DNA from: Bacteroidales bacterium
GTDB taxonomy: Bacteria; Bacteroidota; Bacteroidia; Bacteroidales; UBA3824
Length of the DNA: 64,000 bases
Assembly (NCBI GenBank): GCA_017544805.1
Contig: JAFYDK010000015.1
Location: 6,858-70,857, forward strand
Reading direction: 5' to 3'
Shown here: piece after piece, positions 34,250 through 56,995 of the stretch
Numbering within the stretch: position 1 is the stretch's first letter
How the letters are laid out: each line of letters opens with the position of its first letter
Notes under the pieces: generated by a model
Told to the model about the DNA's origin: nothing
The model's database searches: none
Seen by the model: only the letters and a program-made list of their open reading frames with translations
Translations under genes and position numbers: made by a program

Positions 34250-34987
34250 TTATAAATCTTTAGCTAACATAATTATTCCGGAAACTTTTTTCGGAGAATT
34301 GTTTTCCAAATAGTTCATAACATAAAAATAAGTTCCAAACAAACAATTCCCGCCATCCCATTTAAAATCAGGATTTTCAGAAGAATAAACTCTCTTACCG
34401 CTACGGGAAAAAATATCAATTCTAAAAGACTGAGGTTTGTAATTATAACTTAAATGAAACAAATCATTTTTACCGTCGCCGTTAGGAGTAAAAATATTAG
34501 GAACGTAAAGTTTTAATTCCTCAACGATTTCTCCTGGTTCGGGTTCAGGGTCTGGTTCAGGTTCCGGGTCGATATTCGGTTCAGGTTCGGGTTCAGGCTC
34601 TGGTTCGGGATTTGGTTCGGGTGTCGGATCTGTTCCCGGGTCAGGACGAGGTTCAGGTATAACATGCTTTTGTTCGTCCTTTACCTCAAACTTAACTGTC
34701 GTAATATGATTGCACCCCAAAAAGTTTTCCTCGAAATCAAAAACATACGAACCTGCTTCAAGAAATTTCAGCGACATCATACCGCTGTTCATATCGAATT
34801 TATCAACGATTTCATATTTTCCGCCGCTAATATAATTACATGAAAATTCAGACTGCTTCTTATCCGCAAAACCGCTGATAGAGAGTTTTACGGTTTCATC
34901 TTTAACAAGGCTCAAAACAACATCCTGAGCCATAGAAACGAAAGACATTAAAAGCAATAAAACAAATGCAATAACAGATTTTTTCAT
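34250..34987 (-). CDS. Secreted protein with a (PE)n linker and a T9SS type-B (CHU_C, gliding-motility-associated) C-terminal sorting domain
   Basis: Signal ...[31 protein letters not shown]... linker. C-terminal [17 protein letters not shown]...WDGG...GTYFYV. Confidence 0.8.
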
Positions 34988-35608: not shown

Positions 35609-35638
35609 ACATTAATTTTTTTTAGGGTATTCACGCCT

Positions 35639-35693
35639 CAAAAATATATAAAAAATTCTTTAGAAAAAATACCCCAAAAGGGTAATTTTTTTA
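35639..35693 (-). repeat. 55-bp perfect direct repeat, copy 1: promoter box plus palindrome upstream of 34991..35608
   Basis: caaaaatatataaaaaattctttagaaaaaataccccaaaagggtaattttttta is identical to 38175..38229. On the minus strand it carries TATTTTTG (a TAnnTTTG -7 box, + coordinates 35639..35646, 31 nt before the ATG) and the palindrome ACCCTTTTGGGGT. Confidence 0.85.
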
Positions 35694-38088: not shown

Positions 38089-38174
38089 CGTTTTTTTTAA
38101 TTAAAATTTAGTAATAAAAAAACTTTCTGCGCAAAAAGTATTTTTACGGAAACTATTTATAAAAATCCGCACCC

Positions 38175-38229
38175 CAAAAATATATAAAAAATTCTTTAGA
38201 AAAAATACCCCAAAAGGGTAATTTTTTTA
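38175..38229 (-). repeat. 55-bp perfect direct repeat, copy 2: promoter box plus palindrome upstream of 37204..38088
   Basis: Identical to 35639..35693 (55/55). The -7 box lies at + coordinates 38175..38182, about 87 nt before the start at 38088. Confidence 0.85.
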
Positions 38230-38378: not shown

Positions 38379-40199
38379 TCAATCATTTGAATCCTTATGA
38401 AAGTATTCATAAACTTTTTGAGCTTTAGACAAATCCACTACTTTATTCAGTTCTAAGAGCGATGCGGCGGAAACAGCGTTCACAGAACCGAACTCAGAAA
38501 GCAATTTTGCGATTGTTTTATCGCCGATGCCGTCAATATCCTCCAAGACGGAATGAATCATTCCTTTTGATCGTTTGTTTCTGTGAAACGTTATACAAAA
38601 TCTATGAGCCTCGTCCCTTAAATGTTGAATAACCTTCAACGTCGGGGAATTCTTATCCAAATATAGCGGAATGTTATCTTCGGGGAAAAATATTTCTTCC
38701 AAACGTTTAGCAATTCCTATCAAAGCTATTTTCGGATAAAGTCCGAGAGCTTTCAAAGTTTCGTAAGCGCAACGCAACTGACCTTTACCTCCGTCCACGA
38801 TTACAAGCTGTGGCAAAGGTTTACCTTCATCATGCAAACGTTTGTAACGTCTAAAAACAACTTCCCGCATCGTAGCGAAATCATCAGGACCTTCCACGGT
38901 CTTAACATTAAACAGCCTATAATCTCTTTTGTATGGTTTTCCGTTTCTAAAGACCACGCATGACGAAACAGGATTTGTACCTTGAATATTTGAATTATCA
39001 AAACATTCAATATGTCTTGGCTCAACATCGAGTTGCAAATCCTTCTGCATTGTTTTCATCAAATTATTAACGCTCTTATCAGGGTCAATCAGCGAGCGTT
39101 GTTTTTGTTGCTCGGCCATAAAAAGTTTGCAGTTTCTTTCTGACCATTCCAAGAGTTGTTTTTTATCACCTGTTTTAGGAACGGTAATTTTATAATCGTT
39201 AAAACCAAAATCAACGTCAAAAGGCAAAATCAATTCATCCGCTTTGTCGCCGATATTCAAATCAGAAAAATGAATATCCGCCATAGCGGTCAAAAGAATA
39301 TCTTTTTTATCTTCATCCACCTTAGCTTTTATCTCCCTCGTAAAAGACCGCAAAATCAAACTTTGCGATACTTTCATAAAATTGACATAATAAAAATCGT
39401 CTACAGCATCATACAAAATAGAAAAAACCTCTACAGTATTCGGCACATTAACGGAGATAACATTTTTAGCATGATAAGAAATTAAAACATCATATTTCTC
39501 CTTTATTTCCTGAGCCTTTTCAAACTCCATTTTTTCGGCTAATTCCGCCATCTGAGAGCGCATCATACTGATAACTTCCGCAGTTTTACCATTAAGAATT
39601 TTTCTGACGGTCGCAATATACTCGTTATATTTTTCTTTACTAACCTGACCAATACAAGGAGCACAACAGTTTTTTATATGATAATCCAAACAAACGTCAT
39701 ATTTTCCATTCTTAACAAGTTGTTCTGTCATAGGCGTTCTACACGTCCTTAAATGAAACAACCTCCTAAACATATCCAAAACATTACGCATCACAACAAC
39801 CGAAGTATAAGGACCAAAATACATCCCCTCCCCTGCTATTCTCTTTCTCGTAAAATAAACCCTCGGATAATCCTCGTTAGAAATACAAATCCACGGATAC
39901 GTCTTATCATCCTTCAACAAAATATTATACCTCGGCTGAAACTGCTTAATCAACTTATTCTCCAACAACAAAGCATCAGTCTCCGTATCAACACAAATAT
40001 GCAAAACATCAACAATATGCCTTACTAAAATAGCAGTTTTACCAACTTGATTTTTCTCACGAAAATAAGAAGAAACTCTATTTCGCAGATTTTTCGCCTT
40101 ACCAACATAAATAACAGTACCGTTTTTGTCCAAAAAATTATAAACACCAGGACTAAACGGTAAAGTCTTTACTTTATATTCCAACGTATTTTTATCCAT
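38379..40199 (-). CDS. uvrC: Excinuclease ABC subunit C
   Basis: GIY-YIG motif GVYNFLDKNGTVIYVGKAKNLRNRVSSY, UvrBC-interaction region, endonuclease domain, C-terminal (HhH)2 IDGIGDKTIAKLL. Confidence 0.95.
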   Translation of the reverse strand: MDKNTLEYKVKTLPFSPGVYNFLDKNGTVIYVGKAKNLRNRVSSYFREKNQVGKTAILVRHIVDVLHICVDTETDALLLENKLIKQFQPRYNILLKDDKTYPWICISNEDYPRVYFTRKRIAGEGMYFGPYTSVVVMRNVLDMFRRLFHLRTCRTPMTEQLVKNGKYDVCLDYHIKNCCAPCIGQVSKEKYNEYIATVRKILNGKTAEVISMMRSQMAELAEKMEFEKAQEIKEKYDVLISYHAKNVISVNVPNTVEVFSILYDAVDDFYYVNFMKVSQSLILRSFTREIKAKVDEDKKDILLTAMADIHFSDLNIGDKADELILPFDVDFGFNDYKITVPKTGDKKQLLEWSERNCKLFMAEQQKQRSLIDPDKSVNNLMKTMQKDLQLDVEPRHIECFDNSNIQGTNPVSSCVVFRNGKPYKRDYRLFNVKTVEGPDDFATMREVVFRRYKRLHDEGKPLPQLVIVDGGKGQLRCAYETLKALGLYPKIALIGIAKRLEEIFFPEDNIPLYLDKNSPTLKVIQHLRDEAHRFCITFHRNKRSKGMIHSVLEDIDGIGDKTIAKLLSEFGSVNAVSAASLLELNKVVDLSKAQKVYEYFHKDSND

Positions 40200-40217: not shown

Positions 40218-40373
40218 CGCTCGCCGCGGGGCGTTCCCTTTTGAAAAAGGGAACCGGAAAACTTTTAGGAAACATGAATTTGGAATGCCTTTAAGGGCAT
40301 TCCAAATTCATATTTCTTTAAAAGTTCTTTGGTTCTTTCTTTCAAGAAAGAACAGCCCCCGCGGCTTGAGCGG
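40218..40373 (-). repeat. 156-nt GC-rich modular palindromic element, copy A (MITE-like or structured-RNA-like)
   Basis: Base-by-base comparison gives: 40218..40267 is the reverse complement of 56606..56655 (50/50), and 40321..40373 is the reverse complement of 56500..56552 (53/53). The central 53 nt (40268..40320) is an unrelated near-perfect palindrome, ATGAATTTGGAATGCC/GGCATTCCAAATTCAT. Confidence 0.9.
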
Positions 40374-42009
40374 CAGTAATTACATCAACGAATTGAAAAT
40401 CGTTGACATTAAATAAACCTTTATCGGTTATTTTGAGTTTAGGGATTACGGGCAGAGCCATAAACGCGAGAGTCATGAATGGAGCTGTAAGTTTGCAACC
40501 GAGGGCTTTTATTAGAATTGAGAGGCTTGAGTATTTCTGAGCTGCAGCCTGACAAGAAGTATCGGTCATAATACCTCCGATTTTGAGTTGCATATCGAAA
40601 ATATTTTGACCTGTTACAACTGCGAGCCCACCTTTGTTTGAGATTATTCTATTAATACATTTAACAATAGAACTATCATCAACGCCTACGCAAATTATAT
40701 TATGACTATCATGTGCAACACAGCTTCCTATTGCTCCGAATTTCAAACCAAATCCGTTAATAAAACCTATCGCGGGTTTTGAATTTAAATTATATCGGTT
40801 AAGACAAACAATTTTTAAAATATCTTTTTTTACATCAGACACTATTTTTTCGTCTTTTATCTCTAAGTTTCCCGTGAAACTTTCCGTAAAAAGTTCTTTA
40901 TCTATAACTTTTATAACACGAACTTTGTCGGTTTTTGATTTAATTTCAATATCAGACGTCTTAATTTTCTTACAATTAAAATTATTTATAGGCTTGTTGT
41001 CTGTTACTTCAAAAAACTTCTTTTTGTCTTTTATGAGAGTTTTTCCATCAATAACAACCTCTAAAATGTTAAAATTTTTAATATCATCAACAATAACAAA
41101 ATCCGCAGAATCGTCTTTTTGAAGTAATCCGACATTAAGATTATAATGCTTTATAGGATTAAGAGTAGCGGCTCTTAAAACATCAAAAAAATCGTACCCC
41201 TCTCCTACTAACGTTTTAACCCGCTCAAATAAATATCCTTTCATTAAATCATCAGGATGAAAATCATCACTACAAAGCATCAATTTTTCGGGTGATTCTT
41301 TGAATAAAGGAGCAAGAGCATTGAGATTTTTAGCAGCAGAACCTTCCCTAATTTGGATTTTCATGCCGTATTTTATCTTCTCTCGAGCCTCTTCTAATGT
41401 CATACATTCGTGATCGGTAGATATTCCGGCAGCAGCATATTGTTTAACTTGCGCCTCAGAAATAGCAGGAGCATGACCATCAATAGGCTTATTAAGCTCT
41501 TTTGCGGCGTTAATTTTAGCAACAACTTCCTTATCGTTATTCAAAACACCAACAAAATTCATCATTTCAGAAAGACAAACAACATTGTCCTTCTTTAAAA
41601 GTTTTTTCACACTTTCAGCATTAAGTATTGCTCCTGAAGTTTCAAAACTTGTAGAAGGCACACATGAAGGCACCCCGAAAAATATTTTCATCGGTGAAAG
41701 TGCGGCATCTTTTAGCATAAAATTAAAGCCGTCTTCACCGCATACATTTGAGATTTCATGAGGATCTGTAACAACGGCAACAACGCCGTGCTGCAATGCC
41801 ACCTCAGCGAAACGTTGCGGTGTTACCATACTACTCTCAATATGAATATGAGAATCCACAAGACCGGGCAATATAAACTTAGAAGATTGCACATCGCATT
41901 TTTCTATCTTTTTTATAACTCCGTCCTCAACAAAAATCTTTCCCTGAAAGATTTCTTTATTCACAACATCAACAATATTTCCACTATACTCCATCACAAT
42001 TGCCTCCAT
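40342..42009 (-). CDS. ade: Adenine deaminase
   Basis: Amidohydrolase metal motif LPGLVDSHIHIESSM. DGHAP, TDHE, about 555 aa. The last 10 codons and the stop lie inside repeat element A. Confidence 0.85.
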   Translation of the reverse strand: MEAIVMEYSGNIVDVVNKEIFQGKIFVEDGVIKKIEKCDVQSSKFILPGLVDSHIHIESSMVTPQRFAEVALQHGVVAVVTDPHEISNVCGEDGFNFMLKDAALSPMKIFFGVPSCVPSTSFETSGAILNAESVKKLLKKDNVVCLSEMMNFVGVLNNDKEVVAKINAAKELNKPIDGHAPAISEAQVKQYAAAGISTDHECMTLEEAREKIKYGMKIQIREGSAAKNLNALAPLFKESPEKLMLCSDDFHPDDLMKGYLFERVKTLVGEGYDFFDVLRAATLNPIKHYNLNVGLLQKDDSADFVIVDDIKNFNILEVVIDGKTLIKDKKKFFEVTDNKPINNFNCKKIKTSDIEIKSKTDKVRVIKVIDKELFTESFTGNLEIKDEKIVSDVKKDILKIVCLNRYNLNSKPAIGFINGFGLKFGAIGSCVAHDSHNIICVGVDDSSIVKCINRIISNKGGLAVVTGQNIFDMQLKIGGIMTDTSCQAAAQKYSSLSILIKALGCKLTAPFMTLAFMALPVIPKLKITDKGLFNVNDFQFVDVITAAQAAGAVLS

Positions 42010-42094
42010 TTTTTTTAAAGTTTCTATTCACAAAACCAACACCATCAAAACAAAAAGTGTAAATATAAAATTCTTTTTCTCTCAAAAGAAAAAT

Positions 42095-43951
42095 TTATCG
42101 TCCTAAATATATCAAAAGCGTATTGATATCAGCAGGGCTAACACCGGGAATTCTTGAAGCCTGACCAATCGTTTTCGGCTTAATACGTGCTAATTTTTGA
42201 CGACATTCCGTTGATAAAGAAAGTATAGAAGCAAAATCCAAACCATCAGGTATTGTTACATAATCCAAACGGGATAATTTTTCAGCGGTTGCCTCTTCCC
42301 TGTCAATATAACCCTGATACTTAATTTTTATTTCCGCAGACTCTATTTCGTATCTATCAAAACGCTTCAAAAACGGAAATAAATCTTTTAATTCTTCCAA
42401 ATTAACTTCCGTTCTCAAAATTATCGCACTCAATTTATTACCTTGAGTGAGCGGTTTTCCACCTTTTTGTTGGATATAACCATTAATTCTATCACAAGAA
42501 ACAGAAGTATTTTTACAATATTCCAATATTTTTTCAACATTTTGTTTCTTATTTTGATAGAAATCATAACGTTCTTTATCAGCCAACCCAAGACCAAAAC
42601 CCTTCTCAGTAAGCCTTTCATCAGCATTATCTTGCCTTAAAAGTATACGATATTCCGATCTCGAAGTAAACATCCTATAAGGCTCATCAACACCTTTAGT
42701 CACTAAGTCATCAATTAAAACACCAATATAAGCATCTTTCCTTGACAAAATAAACTCTTTGTTTCCCGTGAAACTTAGTGCAGCATTCAATCCTGCCATC
42801 AAACCTTGACACGCTGCTTCCTCGTAACCAGTTGTTCCGTTTACTTGTCCAGCAAAATAAACGCCCTTAATTACCTTTGACTCTAATGTATGATACAGCT
42901 GTGTAGGATCAAAATAGTCGTATTCTATAGCATAACCCGGACGGAAAATTTTCGCTTTTTCCAAGCCCGGAATAAGTCTAATTGCAGCATACTGAACTTC
43001 AAATGGTAATGAAGAAGAAAATCCGTTAAGATAATACTCACACGTATCAGTACCCTCCGGCTCTAAAAAAACAGGATGTGATTGTTTGTCAGCAAAGGTA
43101 ACGATTTTTGTTTCCACTGACGGGCAATATCTCGGTCCTGTAGATTTTATAGTACCATTAAACAAGGGAGAGCGATCAAAACCCTTACGTAATTCATCAT
43201 GAACCTTAGGATTAGTATAAGAAATATAACATTTTCTCTGTGGCAAACGTTCAATTTTATGTGCCATAAACGAGAAAGAATCGGGATTTTCATCACCATC
43301 TTGAGGTGTCATCGCCGAAAAATCTATCGTTCTACCGTCAATTCTCGCAGGTGTACCAGTCTTCATCCTCGAGGTTTTAACACCCGCTTTAAGCAAAGCT
43401 TCAGTTAAACCACGAGCAGGAATCTCCCCTATCCTACCGCCGACAGCTTGATTTTCGCCAACGTGCATCAATCCATTTAAGAATGTTCCTGCTGTAATAA
43501 CAACCTTTTTACATTTAAATTTCACACCAAAAACTGTTTCAACGCCTTGAATTTCGCCATTTTCAACTTCAATATTTTTGACCGTATCTTGCCAAAAATA
43601 TAAATTCGGTACTTTTTCAAGCAACATTCTCCAATTAATCGAGAACTTCGTTCTATCACATTGCGACCTCGGCGACCACATTGCAGGACCTTTTGAGCGG
43701 TTCAACATTCTAAATTGTATCGAACTCATATCCGTAACAACACCCGTTAAACCACCAAGAGCATCAATTTCACGTACAATTTGCCCTTTAGCAATACCAC
43801 CAATAGCAGGATTACAAGACATCTGAGCAAATTTTGTCATATCCATCGTAATAAGCAAGGTCTTAACACCAAGCCTTGCAGCAGCATACGCAGCCTCACA
43901 GCCTGCATGTCCCGCACCAACAACGATTATATCATATTCTTCAATCATCAT
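42095..43951 (-). CDS. mnmG: tRNA uridine-5-carboxymethylaminomethyl synthesis enzyme MnmG (GidA)
   Basis: YDIIVVGAGHAGCEAA FAD motif, GQMSCNPAIGG-like SCNPAIGGIAKG, and conservation along the full length. Confidence 0.97.
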   Translation of the reverse strand: MMIEEYDIIVVGAGHAGCEAAYAAARLGVKTLLITMDMTKFAQMSCNPAIGGIAKGQIVREIDALGGLTGVVTDMSSIQFRMLNRSKGPAMWSPRSQCDRTKFSINWRMLLEKVPNLYFWQDTVKNIEVENGEIQGVETVFGVKFKCKKVVITAGTFLNGLMHVGENQAVGGRIGEIPARGLTEALLKAGVKTSRMKTGTPARIDGRTIDFSAMTPQDGDENPDSFSFMAHKIERLPQRKCYISYTNPKVHDELRKGFDRSPLFNGTIKSTGPRYCPSVETKIVTFADKQSHPVFLEPEGTDTCEYYLNGFSSSLPFEVQYAAIRLIPGLEKAKIFRPGYAIEYDYFDPTQLYHTLESKVIKGVYFAGQVNGTTGYEEAACQGLMAGLNAALSFTGNKEFILSRKDAYIGVLIDDLVTKGVDEPYRMFTSRSEYRILLRQDNADERLTEKGFGLGLADKERYDFYQNKKQNVEKILEYCKNTSVSCDRINGYIQQKGGKPLTQGNKLSAIILRTEVNLEELKDLFPFLKRFDRYEIESAEIKIKYQGYIDREEATAEKLSRLDYVTIPDGLDFASILSLSTECRQKLARIKPKTIGQASRIPGVSPADINTLLIYLGR

Positions 43952-52752: not shown

Positions 52753-52818
52753 TTATCAACAAAATTTTATCAACAATATAAAATACTGATATTTAATCAA
52801 TTACAAAAGTTATCAACA
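52753..52818. promoter_or_regulatory. Three TTATCAACA DnaA-box-like sites upstream of dut
   Basis: Exact TTATCAACA at 52753..52761, 52767..52775 and 52810..52818, in the 135-nt spacer between the flippase stop and the dut start. Confidence 0.45.
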
Positions 52819-52821
52819 TAA

Positions 52822-54300
52822 TTAACGTTTAAATTTGTGCATAAGCTTAGCAAACATCGGTCCCAAATTCTCTCTCTTGAAAACCACGCCTGCAAAAATC
52901 ATAAGCAGCAAAGTATTAACAATAATCTCCCAAACCAACTCAAGCTCTTTTGTAAAACATGATACAAAGTAAAGAACGGCCGCCAAAGAGGTATACAATA
53001 TCATATTCTTGAAATCATAATCGCAAACAAGATATTTTTTTCCCCATAAAAACGTAATTATCAACATTATAAGATAACAAGCCACATTCGCAACCGCGCA
53101 TGAAACATAACCGTACAAGGGAACGAAAATATAATTCAAAACAATAGTTACCACCGCACCGATTATAAAAATATAAATTCCGTAAACCGTTTTGGAATTC
53201 AATTTATACCAAAACGACTGCAAATAAACCAATCCGACCAACAAATGCCCTATTAAAAGGAAAGGGACAACTTTTAAGCCCGACCAGTATGATGAATCAA
53301 CAAAATACTTAATCACGTTTAAATAGAACATAATCCCCAAAAAAATGAATAATCCAAAGGTCAGTAAATATTTATTTACTTTTGCAAACAAATCGTTGAA
53401 ATCTACAGACCCCTTGTTAGAAAAGAAAAACGGATCGGCCGAATACCTGAAACACTGAATAAACAAGGTCATCAAAACGGCAATTTTAGCATTAGCACCG
53501 TAAATACCTAATTCGCTGAGAATATAACTGTTAGCATCTGTTATAGAATCAGGAACGGTATAAAAAAACTTTATGGAAACTCTGTCAAAAAACTCGTTAA
53601 TCATTCCCGCCAAACCCGAAACCAAAAGCGGTAAAGAATAAACAAGCATATTTTTCAACAATGCAAAGTCAAAACTATATTTAACTTTGAAAAATTCAGG
53701 CACGAAAAGCAAAAGCGTTAAAAGACTTGCCATAAAATTCGCCAAAAAGACATATCCAACACCAAAATTTTCGTCATAATATCCGGTTTTAGGCAGATAC
53801 AAGATAAAAAACAAATTCAAACCAATATTAACACAAATATTAATGAGCTTAAAAATACCGAATTTCAAAGCTTTGTTCTGTTGTCTTAACCGTGCAAAAG
53901 GAATGGAGGTAAAAGCGTCCAAAGCGAGAATTATCACAAAAAGCGAAATATAATTTTCATGGGTTTGATAATTCAAAATTTCAGCAATCTGTCCCGAAAA
54001 AAGAAGCCCGGCAATTACAAAAACTGAACTCGTTATAAATAAGGAAGTTGCAGCAGTAGAAAATACTTTGTCGGGATTATTTTGCGTTTTGGAAAAATAA
54101 AAATATCCGGTTTCCATACCGTAAGTTAAAAGAATCATCAAAAATGTAACATAAGTATACATTTCGGTTATAATTCCGTACTCCGAAGGCACGAAAACGC
54201 GGGTGTAAAGCGGAACTAACAAATAATTTAAAAGCCGTCCCACAATAGAACTCAAACCGTAAATAAAAGTCTGAGATGCAAGTTGTTTAATTTTGCCCAT
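52822..54300 (-). CDS. MOP-superfamily polysaccharide/lipid-linked-oligosaccharide flippase (Wzx/MurJ-like)
   Basis: About 14 predicted TM helices across 492 aa. Start at MGKIKQLASQ, supported by a CAAAAGTA box at 54322..54329. Confidence 0.6.
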   Translation of the reverse strand: MGKIKQLASQTFIYGLSSIVGRLLNYLLVPLYTRVFVPSEYGIITEMYTYVTFLMILLTYGMETGYFYFSKTQNNPDKVFSTAATSLFITSSVFVIAGLLFSGQIAEILNYQTHENYISLFVIILALDAFTSIPFARLRQQNKALKFGIFKLINICVNIGLNLFFILYLPKTGYYDENFGVGYVFLANFMASLLTLLLFVPEFFKVKYSFDFALLKNMLVYSLPLLVSGLAGMINEFFDRVSIKFFYTVPDSITDANSYILSELGIYGANAKIAVLMTLFIQCFRYSADPFFFSNKGSVDFNDLFAKVNKYLLTFGLFIFLGIMFYLNVIKYFVDSSYWSGLKVVPFLLIGHLLVGLVYLQSFWYKLNSKTVYGIYIFIIGAVVTIVLNYIFVPLYGYVSCAVANVACYLIMLIITFLWGKKYLVCDYDFKNMILYTSLAAVLYFVSCFTKELELVWEIIVNTLLLMIFAGVVFKRENLGPMFAKLMHKFKR

Positions 54301-55111: not shown

Positions 55112-55129
55112 TTTTTACTTTTTTATATT

Positions 55130-55400
55130 TTTTATAATCATAATTATAATTATCTCCATTATTTTCATAATTATAATTATGATTTTTTGCTTTTATAATT
55201 TTTATAATAATGATTATGATTTTTTGCTTTTATAATTTTTATTATGATTTTTATTTTATAATTTTTATAATAATGATTATGAATTTTTACTTTTATAATT
55301 TTTATAATAATGATTATGAATTTTTTACTTTTATAATTTTTATAATAATGATTATGATTTTTTATTTTTATGATTTTTATAATAATGATTATGAATTTTT
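55130..55400. repeat. AT-only tandem repeat, about 7-8 copies of a 37-38-bp unit (candidate DNA-unwinding element of oriC)
   Basis: The core ATAATAATGATTATGA recurs at 55204, 55267, 55304, 55342 and 55379, with spacings of 63, 37, 38 and 37 nt (the 63-nt gap holds a truncated copy). A variant ATAATTATAATTATGA lies at 55167. Unit sequence: cttttataatttttataataatgattatgattttttg. Confidence 0.85.
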
Positions 55401-55539
55401 TATTTCTGTGATTATAAAAACCATTATCACGAATTTTATTTTTATAAAAATCATAAAAAGTTTTTTCTCCTCTATAAAAATTCCCCAAAAATCACCACCC
55501 TTCTTCGCTAAAAATAAAAATAATATATTTTTTAAATAT

Positions 55540-55900
55540 TTTTTTGATGATTATTATTACTTGTTGATAGTGTTGATAACTTTTTTGGTTATTTTTGCAA
55601 AGTGTAATTATTAACACTCATTCACTTTTTTCAACAGATAATGTTGATAACTAAATGCTGATTTTTAATGACTTACATAAGTTATCAACACTATCAACAA
55701 CTTTCGCTGTTGATGTTTATTGTTGATAAACTTTTTCTCGAAAGTGTTGAAAAAAATGTTGATTTGTTTGTTGAATCCTGTGGATAAACAGAAAAGAAAT
55801 GTTGATAATTTTTATTTTTAATGTACTTTTGCACATTATCAACACTTTTTAAACACTTGTTCAACACACTATCAACATACTATGTTGATAACTTTTGTAA
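55540..55900. other. Candidate chromosomal replication origin: DnaA-box cluster
   Basis: One perfect TGTGGATAA at 55779..55787. Seven exact TGTTGATAA/TTATCAACA (one mismatch to consensus) at 55571, 55642, 55682, 55721, 55800, 55836 and 55883. Three CTATCAACA-type boxes at 55562, 55691 and 55869. Further degenerate TGTTGAnnn copies. All lie in a 945-bp gene-free gap. Confidence 0.6.
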
Positions 55901-56056
55901 GTTGCTAAAAATCACAGTGTTAATATGTTTAAAACTGGTGTTAAAAAAAACGCTAAATGTGTAGTTTTCAGTACATTAGCATTAATTGTACTCTAAACAG
56001 TTATTAACATTATCGAAAAAAATTATAAAAAGTATTATAAATTAATTTATAAACGT

Positions 56057-56497
56057 ATGAAAATCAATAAATTATTTATGGCATCTGACCATGCCGGCTA
56101 TGAGTTGAAACTCTTTTTAAAAGATTATTTAGTAAAAAAAGGTTTTGTTGTGGAAGACCTCGGCACTAATTCTGCCGATAGCTGCGACTACGCAGACTAC
56201 GCTCACCCCCTTGCTGAAAACGTTGAAAAAAATCCCGAATTCTACGGTATAACTATCTGCGGAAGCGGTAACGGTATCTCTATCACCGCTAACAAACATC
56301 AGGGTATTCGCGCAGCTCTGTGTTGGAATAAAGAAATTTCACGCCTCGCCCGCGCTCACAACAACGCTAACGTATTGTCTTTGCCCGCTCGCTTTATCTC
56401 TAAAGACGAAGCCGTAGAAATACTTGAGGCTTTCTTGAACACCGAATTTGAAGGTGGCAGACATCAACGCAGAATAGAAAAAATTCCGGTGAAGTAA
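56057..56497 (+). CDS. rpiB: Ribose-5-phosphate isomerase B
   Basis: MASDHAGYELK, CGSGNGISITANK, RAHNNANVLSLPARF, GGRHQRRI. Confidence 0.93.
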   Translation: MKINKLFMASDHAGYELKLFLKDYLVKKGFVVEDLGTNSADSCDYADYAHPLAENVEKNPEFYGITICGSGNGISITANKHQGIRAALCWNKEISRLARAHNNANVLSLPARFISKDEAVEILEAFLNTEFEGGRHQRRIEKIPVK

Positions 56498-56499
56498 GA

Positions 56500-56655
56500 C
56501 CGCTCAAGCCGCGGGGGCTGTTCTTTCTTGAAAGAAAGAACCAAAGAACTTTGTGAGATATTAATTAGGGAAAGCCTTTTGGGGCTTTCCCTAATTAATA
56601 TCTCTTAAAAGTTTTCCGGTTCCCTTTTTCAAAAGGGAACGCCCCGCGGCGAGCG
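56500..56655 (+). repeat. 156-nt GC-rich modular palindromic element, copy B
   Basis: Left arm ccgctcaagccgcgggggctg + hairpin ttctttctt/aagaaagaa + ccaaagaacttt. Central 53-nt cassette with a 22-bp perfect stem, GAGATATTAATTAGGGAAAGCC/GGCTTTCCCTAATTAATATCTC. Right arm taaaagttttccgg + hairpin ttccctttt/aaaagggaa + cgccccgcggcgagcg. Confidence 0.9.
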
Positions 56656-56995
56656 TCATAACTCCGCAAATCGCTCCTATGCTGTCTGCGAGCATATCGA
56701 AATAATCGAATCCGCGCCATGGTATAAAGTATTGAATTATTTCGATTAGGATACCGTAAACAGTTCCAATTAAAATGATTTTTATTTTATCGGAGGTTTT
56801 GAGAATCTTTTTTTCAAATCCTATTAATGCTGATAAGATGAAAAAAATGCCGAAATGGACTATTTTGTCAGCGTGCGGAATATGAAATTTTGTAGGGTCT
56901 TCATCGTGAGGAAGATCTACTTTTATGGTGCAGCCGATAAGCATTATCACTGCCCATATAATACTGAATTTGTAATTTTTAATTTTGTTTAACAT
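56591..56995 (-). CDS. VanZ-family membrane protein
   Basis: Start at MLNKIKNYKFSIIWAV. Four TM helices. HFGIFFILS and the D..AD..G-type end DMLADSIGAICG. The last ~21 codons and the stop lie inside repeat element B. Confidence 0.65.
   Translation of the reverse strand: MLNKIKNYKFSIIWAVIMLIGCTIKVDLPHDEDPTKFHIPHADKIVHFGIFFILSALIGFEKKILKTSDKIKIILIGTVYGILIEIIQYFIPWRGFDYFDMLADSIGAICGVMTLAAGRSLLKKGTGKLLRDIN

Follow-up and report, generated by a model that had tools for sequence, protein, structure and literature searches.

Mosaic Palindromic Repeats, Probably of a REPIN/BIME-Like Kind, at Gene 3′ Ends in Rumen Bacteroidales

Results

Location and Anatomy of Copies A and B

The window, a stretch of 64,000 nucleotides from a Bacteroidales bacterium, carries two complete copies of a 156-nt element. 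Copy B (56500–56655, plus strand) lies between rpiB (56057–56497, plus strand) and a vanZ-like gene (56591–56944, minus strand), and was characterized by alignment to copy A, folding and strain comparison. As originally predicted, it begins 2 nt downstream of the rpiB stop codon (56495–56497). The final 21 codons of the vanZ-like gene and its stop codon (TLAAGRSLLKKGTGKLLRDIN plus stop) are copy B sequence. Copy A (40218–40373, minus strand) lies between the adenine deaminase gene ade (40342–42009, minus strand), whose final 10 codons and stop codon fall within the element, and uvrC (38379–40199, minus strand), whose start codon is found 18 nt past it.

Copy B is composed of seven modules on the plus strand. 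The left end module T of type a (CCGCTCAAGCCGCGGGGGCT, 56500–56519) holds a small CCGC/GCGG hairpin and is followed by the palindrome P1 (GTTCTTTCTTGAAAGAAAGAAC, that is, GTTCTTTCTT GA AAGAAAGAAC; 56520–56541) and the junction J1 (CAAAGAACTTTG, 56542–56553), which is an A-rich run leading into the base of the core stem. The core (56554–56606) is variant B of type I. It is followed by the junction J2′ (AAAAGTTTTCCG, 56607–56618), the palindrome P2 (GTTCCCTTTTTCAAAAGGGAAC, that is, GTTCCCTTTT TC AAAAGGGAAC; 56619–56640) and the right end module T′ of type b (GCCCCGCGGCGAGCG, 56641–56655). The core forms a perfect 22-bp stem (56555–56576 with 56583–56604) around a loop at 56577–56582, and each arm has its own perfect 22-nt palindrome, with only mirrored changes separating P1 from P2; both features had been predicted and were confirmed. 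In copy A, the same order was read on the minus strand: T(a) (40373–40354), P1 (40353–40332), J1 (40331–40320), a diverged type I core (40319–40267) whose stem contains one G-U pair (A-C on the other strand), J2′ (40266–40255), P2 (40254–40233) and T′(b) (40232–40218).

Copy B and the reverse complement of 40218–40373 agree without a mismatch in 53 nt on the left and 50 nt on the right, in agreement with the original prediction, and the 53-nt centers differ. The centers had been described as unrelated apart from the base of the stem, and this description did not hold. When the half-stems are aligned, 17 of 21 positions match and two 1-nt gaps are needed; an equally good alignment was obtained in 9 of 2000 shuffles for the left halves and 3 of 2000 for the right halves. 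GGAAnGCC, ATAT and AATT are common to both cores besides the stem base, and every difference between them is mirrored in the opposite half of the stem. Judged by this alignment, the two cores are related, with A a diverged form of B.

Several other repeats were observed in the window. A 65-nt direct repeat (35629–35693 and 38165–38229, 94% identical) contains AAAAAATACCC-CAAAA-GGGTAATTTTTTT, an A-run, hairpin and T-run, just past the stop codons of a gene encoding 489 amino acids and of uvrC, and has the look of a second terminator-like module that is repeated in this genome. Inside an ORF at 34250–34987 (minus strand), the 12-nt sequence GGTTCNGGNTCN is repeated in tandem at least seven times (34536–34655) and would encode a short low-complexity peptide repeat. 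Upstream of rpiB, extremely AT-rich overlapping direct repeats with spacings of 9, 19, 26–28, and 37–38 nt occupy 55121–55415, which is covered by spurious ORFs only. Around rpiB, direct and inverted copies of a roughly 50-nt AT-rich motif (TTATCAACA...TGATTTTTAAT), 74–88% alike, were found in intergenic DNA at 52767–52826, 55653–55698, and 55881–55934, possibly representing a regulatory or repeat motif that they share.

A Family Assembled From Shuffled Modules

Scanning genomes at one per species yielded 49 loci. The MAG RGIG1595 from goat abomasum, which belongs to the species of the window (RpiB 100% and UvrC 96% identical), contained at least 17 elements in 16 loci, with shuffled ends, and further loci came from four other rumen Bacteroidales MAGs. 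The basic unit of about 48 nt comprises J, P (the perfect 22-nt palindrome) and T (the GC-rich end, a small GC hairpin), and the Bacteroidales element consists of two units, inverted, around a core hairpin. When oriented alike, all Bacteroidales doublets read T-P1-J1-core-J2′-P2-T′, where P1 may be a TTTTTT variant. The P-J sequence holds repeated GTTC/AAAGAAC heptamers and A-runs, and J-core-J′ reads as an A-rich segment, CTTTT-stem-AAAAG and a T-rich segment.

Core type I (GAGATAT...GGGAAAGCC) occurs in several variants, including B and the diverged A. Type II is 75 nt long, type III is composite and non-palindromic, a short form was also found, and the element at locus L027 has no core. The four T variants (a, b, c, and d) differ in their small stems, where pairs are swapped (CCGC/GCGG vs. 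CGCC/GGCG), and combine freely with the inner part; at L030 and L048, for example, identical ends enclose an inner part in opposite orientations. Some copies bear additional outer hairpins (CAC...GTG), and single units and T-P-T′ minimal forms were also seen (L027 and Clostridia). The build is combinatorial: four T types and about six cores are combined with three or four P/J types and, in some copies, outer hairpins.

The predicted constant scaffold with a variable core was borne out at the level of the family, with the same P-J arms around about six distinct core types in one MAG, and the arms were also found around unrelated cores in Alphaproteobacteria and viral contigs. The predicted hypervariability of the core was not: each core type recurs at several loci, and core A, a diverged form of B, was confined to the ade locus among all fetched loci.

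Folding and Covariation of the Stems

Copies A and B fold far beyond chance (z = −12 as RNA and −11.7 as DNA; 0 of 200 shuffles as stable). The minimum-energy RNA fold of copy B is a single long hairpin of −94.0 kcal/mol, and a four-way junction with local P hairpins is 1.8 kcal/mol worse. With DNA parameters, for single-stranded DNA, the four-way junction is the minimum-energy fold. As read from the sequence, a long duplex of P1 with P2 has 6 of 22 positions non-Watson-Crick, and each local palindrome is perfect. The predicted precedence of local stems over one long inter-arm duplex is supported by the covariation of P described below and by the DNA minimum, but as RNA the long hairpin is ahead by about 2 kcal/mol.

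Among 33 distinct units, which represent only three or four P types and so reflect few independent events, the P stem was 99.7% Watson-Crick paired, and 4 of its 10 pairs had changed on both sides and none on one side only. No G-U intermediates were found in 330 cells. The mirrored differences had been taken as compensatory changes and as a sign of selection on the local stems. The mirroring was confirmed, but mirrored changes of this strictly Watson-Crick kind are explained equally well by templated correction of the palindromes and by selection. Since exchange between inverted repeats would keep the stems perfect, “compensatory” change need not mean selection on the fold. Furthermore, on either strand the stems form perfect palindromes, which points to the DNA level.

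Position Relative to Genes

Nearly all of the Bacteroidales elements (28 of 29) overlapped a stop codon or lay within about 45 nt of one, and none of the 29 sat between two 5′ ends. Many of them occupied the entire gap of a convergent gene pair. In tandem gene pairs the next start codon followed 14–18 nt past the element, so that a complete terminator is impossible at these sites. A simple terminator consensus scan did not call copy B, and called core A on the antisense strand only. Several contigs terminated inside an element.

Insertion, Persistence and Rearrangement in Place

Copy B was present in 10 of 10 strains with identical RpiB. In relatives with 82–88% RpiB identity, the stop codons of rpiB and vanZ were 0–25 nt apart, the element was absent and the VanZ tails were native. 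Related species also had no ade between mnmG and uvrC; their mnmG is directly followed by uvrC, so the block of ade and element is an insertion in the lineage of the window. The insertion was noted at 40342–42095 of the window, in comparison with L078–L083; the distance from mnmG to uvrC in the related species is 21–33 nt, and the palindromic element lies at the uvrC-side border of the block.

Two alleles with nearly identical flanks, differing in orientation and core, were found at the ade locus. The allele of the window (core A) was shared by L060–L062, while L022 and L073–L076 carried an allele that is inverted, has a B-type core and differs in its junction bases. The orientation of the element to its upstream gene, predicted to be fixed, was thus reversed among near-identical strains. 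Simple in-place inversion was rejected for these alleles since the junction bases differ (ACTG/AT vs. GATGAT/ATATA).

In five species, a type III element was kept in the gap from the same 444-aa gene to folD, and its arm pair and core had been inverted independently of each other. The P stems of these elements were identical and the J junctions differed at one position, compared with 87–95% identity in the adjacent gene end. Loops were found to flip as well. The core B loop (56577–56582 in the window; L001–L010, about 80 nt past the rpiB stop) read TTTTGG, TTTTGA or CCAAAA depending on the strain, and the flip of TTTTGG to its reverse complement CCAAAA leaves the stem unchanged. P loops also flipped between orthologues, e.g., L053 and L056. 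These results showed that whole elements land on or beside stop codons, persist across species and are rearranged in place.

In one strain (L005, 3444–5086), an IS4/IS5-type transposase pair (DUF772 and DDE_Tnp_1) was observed just downstream of a hemN-like gene. It is not in the window and is unrelated to the palindromic element.

Modules Beyond the Bacteroidales

Single units were found in Clostridia (Acutalibacteraceae and others) at 13 or more loci of three MAGs (8, 4, and 1 loci), and 13 of them were identical at 48 of 48 nt. They lay 5–25 nt past the stop codons of unrelated housekeeping genes, on the strand of the gene and upstream of an intrinsic terminator. Convergent neighbors carried one unit each, in opposite orientations at pairs less than 1 kb apart, so the orientation follows transcription and not replication. 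Two variant units were also on the sense strand, and the variant P was compensated (GTTAC...GTAAC). A transposase between paired units (L011 and L043) was considered and rejected, the genes there being ordinary convergent genes. The terminators downstream of the unit fell into a few repeated types, GGTCACGGA..., ACGGCAG..., CACCGYC...GGCGGTG, and AGCAGGTGTT... (L011, L036, L038, and L043; L012 and L057; L014 and L037; L023 and L059), of which the CACCGCC type is similar to the outer hairpins found on long Bacteroidales copies.

The unit was embedded in larger intergenic mosaics in Hadza “Eubacteriales” MAGs. These intergenic regions of several hundred nt (L017, L025, L028, L034, L040, and L058) consist almost entirely of short repeated modules, including TTGACAATTGACGA repeats, ACGAGAGCCGCTCGCCGC and small hairpins, and the mosaic is much richer than that of the window.

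When copy B was compared by BLAST with plasmids and with phages, a single weak match came from each set, leading to doublets in Pseudoroseomonas and a half element in a Microviridae record; a match to an Enterococcus plasmid was discarded as low-complexity. Two Pseudoroseomonas cervicalis plasmids carried P-J-core-J′-P′ doublets with GC-rich cores between genes, and the layout of A-run, hairpin and T-run was clearest in L092 and L094 (A6...T5-6). The 6.6-kb Microviridae sp. record MG945182.1 from cattle blood, marked UNVERIFIED, has its half element in a non-coding stretch (L091, 659–790), where P-J (GTTCTTTTTTGAAAAAAAGAACCAAAAAACTTTT) is followed by a GC-rich hairpin.

P-J doublets were detected with a J-P pattern search on 39 IMG/VR viral contigs of 54–72% GC, and a T-P pattern gave 0 matches on viral contigs. 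The doublets followed the stop codon of one gene and preceded the next gene's ribosome-binding site, and in L133, the sole viral contig with ORFs listed, the flanking genes look like phage tail/baseplate genes as judged by eye. Their cores were 40–61 nt long and mostly folded no better than shuffles. A metagenome scan with a J-P pattern whose J part was one base too long returned 7 variant copies on GC-rich contigs, a number that is no measure of abundance. A P-J sequence of 33–34 nt is common to the AT-rich Bacteroidales and to hosts with 54–72% GC, and all hosts are MAGs or contigs except for the Pseudoroseomonas plasmids.

Discussion

The Favored Reading

We favor, with moderate confidence, the reading that copies A and B are dispersed, non-autonomous mosaic palindromic repeats of a REPIN/BIME-like kind, which probably serve as a 3′-end hairpin or partial terminator. 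In anatomy, copy number, placement at 3′ ends, persistence and mosaic construction, the family corresponds to REP/REPIN/BIME-type repeats. REP-type repeats have a palindromic unit of 20–40 nt in many extragenic copies, and here a 22-nt P lies within a 48-nt unit; two inverted units are likewise joined in one hairpin (−94 kcal/mol, z = −12). Because its modules are also present in plasmids, phage contigs and bacteria that are not related to the host, the element is to be regarded as a new relative of these repeats, not as a unique device.

The feet of P differ from those of the two large REP superfamilies, with neither GTAG nor CGTC at either foot; P starts with GTTC and ends with GAAC, and T reads CGCTCGCCGCGGGG. 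The original prediction had suggested looking for an associated RAYT or IS gene with the same termini, and none was seen in the fetched loci; a crude search for the HuH...Y motif gave no HUH/Y1 gene in the window or the 133 loci (1.04 Mb in total). With the foot absent, no RAYT found in the fetched loci and modules that cross phyla, membership in the REP/REPIN class is not established. Searches of literature full texts with sequence strings from the element gave no match, and keyword searches returned general REP/REPIN papers only.

The most likely route to the flips of loop, core and arms would be recombination or template switching between the inverted repeats of the element itself, and such exchange would also maintain every stem as a perfect Watson-Crick palindrome. 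The mover is probably an enzyme that recognizes hairpins in single-stranded DNA, such as a RAYT or IS200-like HUH transposase encoded once elsewhere. When transcribed, the element probably forms a 3′-end or intercistronic hairpin block, and would then be a partial bidirectional terminator and a barrier to 3′ exonucleases, as has been reported for the REPs of Escherichia coli. We infer that the elements probably tune expression at gene 3′ ends. They also rewrite protein C-termini (ade and VanZ) and break assemblies, and the shuffling and flipping of palindromic modules in place mimics compensatory evolution. Annotation pipelines should recognize these elements.

Alternative Explanations

A structured RNA of the 3′ UTR was among the original suggestions and is plausible as such. 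The 13 identical and two variant Clostridia units are all in sense orientation and come after the stop codon and ahead of the terminator, the arms at the folD locus are more conserved than the neighboring coding sequence, and the P stem covaries. As an account of the whole family, it would hold that selection acts on the RNA hairpins of a cis-acting element that might bind protein or control decay, with copy number and mobility of secondary importance; we consider this unlikely. The stem changes are strictly Watson-Crick with no G-U in 330 cells, both orientations occur at one Bacteroidales locus, and insertion destroys native gene C-termini. Moreover, no Rfam family matched the window at the gathering threshold, and below it only miRNA-precursor and plastid psbA 3′-UTR models appeared, none of them real.

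A more novel idea, which we consider unlikely, concerns the arm of about 34 nt formed by P and J, which is nearly identical in Bacteroidota, Clostridia, Alphaproteobacteria, plasmids and phage contigs. It would be the handle of an undescribed, broadly transferable system that installs and maintains a variable cassette of fixed length (about 40–75 nt) precisely in the gap from a stop codon to the following gene. Such a system could be a mobile modular terminator and 3′-UTR device, or else a new guild of hairpin-recognizing transposases could use it as their substrate, and the differences among cassettes would then be functional.

An improbable alternative is a DNA platform at gene ends that binds gyrase, a nucleoid protein or some other conserved chromosomal protein, a role that has been proposed for BIMEs. 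It would explain why an AT-rich P-J module is near-identical across phyla, even in hosts of 54–72% GC, and it is consistent with the position of elements between convergent or closely packed genes and with the repeated GTTC/AAAGAAC heptamers and A-runs. On the other hand, no known binding consensus was recognized on inspection, no protein could be assigned, and horizontal transfer explains the distribution equally well.

Of the three original explanations, a MITE-like repeat came closest. A classical MITE, the deletion derivative of an IS with a DDE transposase and terminal inverted repeats, would have the terminal inverted repeats, the small size, the many dispersed copies and the presence/absence differences between species seen here. 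We nevertheless hold it quite improbable. About 20 junctions inspected by eye showed no direct target duplication, although the empty sites have diverged too far for exact junctions to be read, and neither a parent nor any other full-length IS with the termini of the element was seen in the fetched loci; in addition, single units and T-P-T′ minimal forms exist, and the ends are shuffled among copies.

The attC R-box consensus is R″ RYYYAAC ... R′ GTTRRRY. A site-specific recombinase site, either attC-like or a small invertible switch, was also among the original suggestions and is most improbable despite the location directly after ORFs, the conserved ends with a variable center, the cassette-like insertion of ade and element between mnmG and uvrC and the cores in both orientations: the P ends (GTTCYYY/RRRGAAC) misfit that consensus, copies are scattered singly at housekeeping genes with no arrays, no integrase or invertase was found among the called genes beside the two loci of the window or their orthologues, and 4–6 nt loops flip inside perfect stems, which is impossible for a recombinase. 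The attC, invertible-switch, CRISPR-like and retron readings were rejected on anatomy.

Comparison With Known Systems

The present element and the attC sites of integrons have several traits in common: both are imperfect palindromes located immediately behind an ORF, their ends are conserved while the central structure varies, and both fold as single-stranded DNA. Unlike attC sites, the present element departs from the R-box consensus, forms no cassette arrays, had no integrase among the genes called beside it and is scattered among housekeeping genes.

In the neisserial intergenic mosaic elements (NIMEs), dRS3 repeats flank variable RS segments; NIMEs occur in arrays, and dRS3 is a target of phage integration. 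NIMEs and Correia elements resemble the present family in having constant short inverted repeats around variable segments of similar length, in intergenic DNA and many copies. However, there is no sequence similarity, and neither arrays nor phage integration were seen here.

The BIMEs of enterobacteria are mosaics of the REP variants Y and Z and other short motifs. They are likewise assembled from a few motifs with alternating palindromic units, between genes and at operon 3′ ends, for which roles in stabilization and termination have been reported (bioRxiv 10.64898/2026.03.23.713779). Their sequences are unrelated to those found here, and their arrangement is tandem whereas the present one is nested and symmetric.

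REPINs are also inverted doublets of short palindromic units that form a long hairpin (Bertels and Rainey, 2011, PMC3116915; PMC3337134), and they are extragenic, dispersed, numerous, persistent at orthologous loci and often at gene 3′ ends. GTAG or CGTC feet define two large REP superfamilies (PMC3733652), and the element of the window has neither, with no RAYT found so far. Here, extra modules (T, J, and outer hairpins) flank the units, and a long core hairpin, which comes in several types, takes the place of a short spacer. REP ends can supply stop codons (PMC3733652), and one REP acts as a partial terminator and mRNA stabilizer (bioRxiv 10.64898/2026.03.23.713779). In Bacteroidetes, RAYTs (TnpA(REP)) of subclass 2.6 are flanked by genome-repeated “atypical secondary structures” (PMC6006769), which share with the present element the host phylum, the multi-copy hairpins and a non-canonical REP form; the text of that study gives no comparable sequences, so the link is a lead only. 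By published accounts, REPINs are passed on vertically and are specific to a lineage, whereas the modules found here are common to Bacteroidota, Clostridia, Alphaproteobacteria and viral contigs, and sharing across phyla, plasmids and phage contigs is therefore unexpected. With the present family, REP/REPIN/BIME-type repeats would extend to uncultured rumen Bacteroidales and gut Clostridia.
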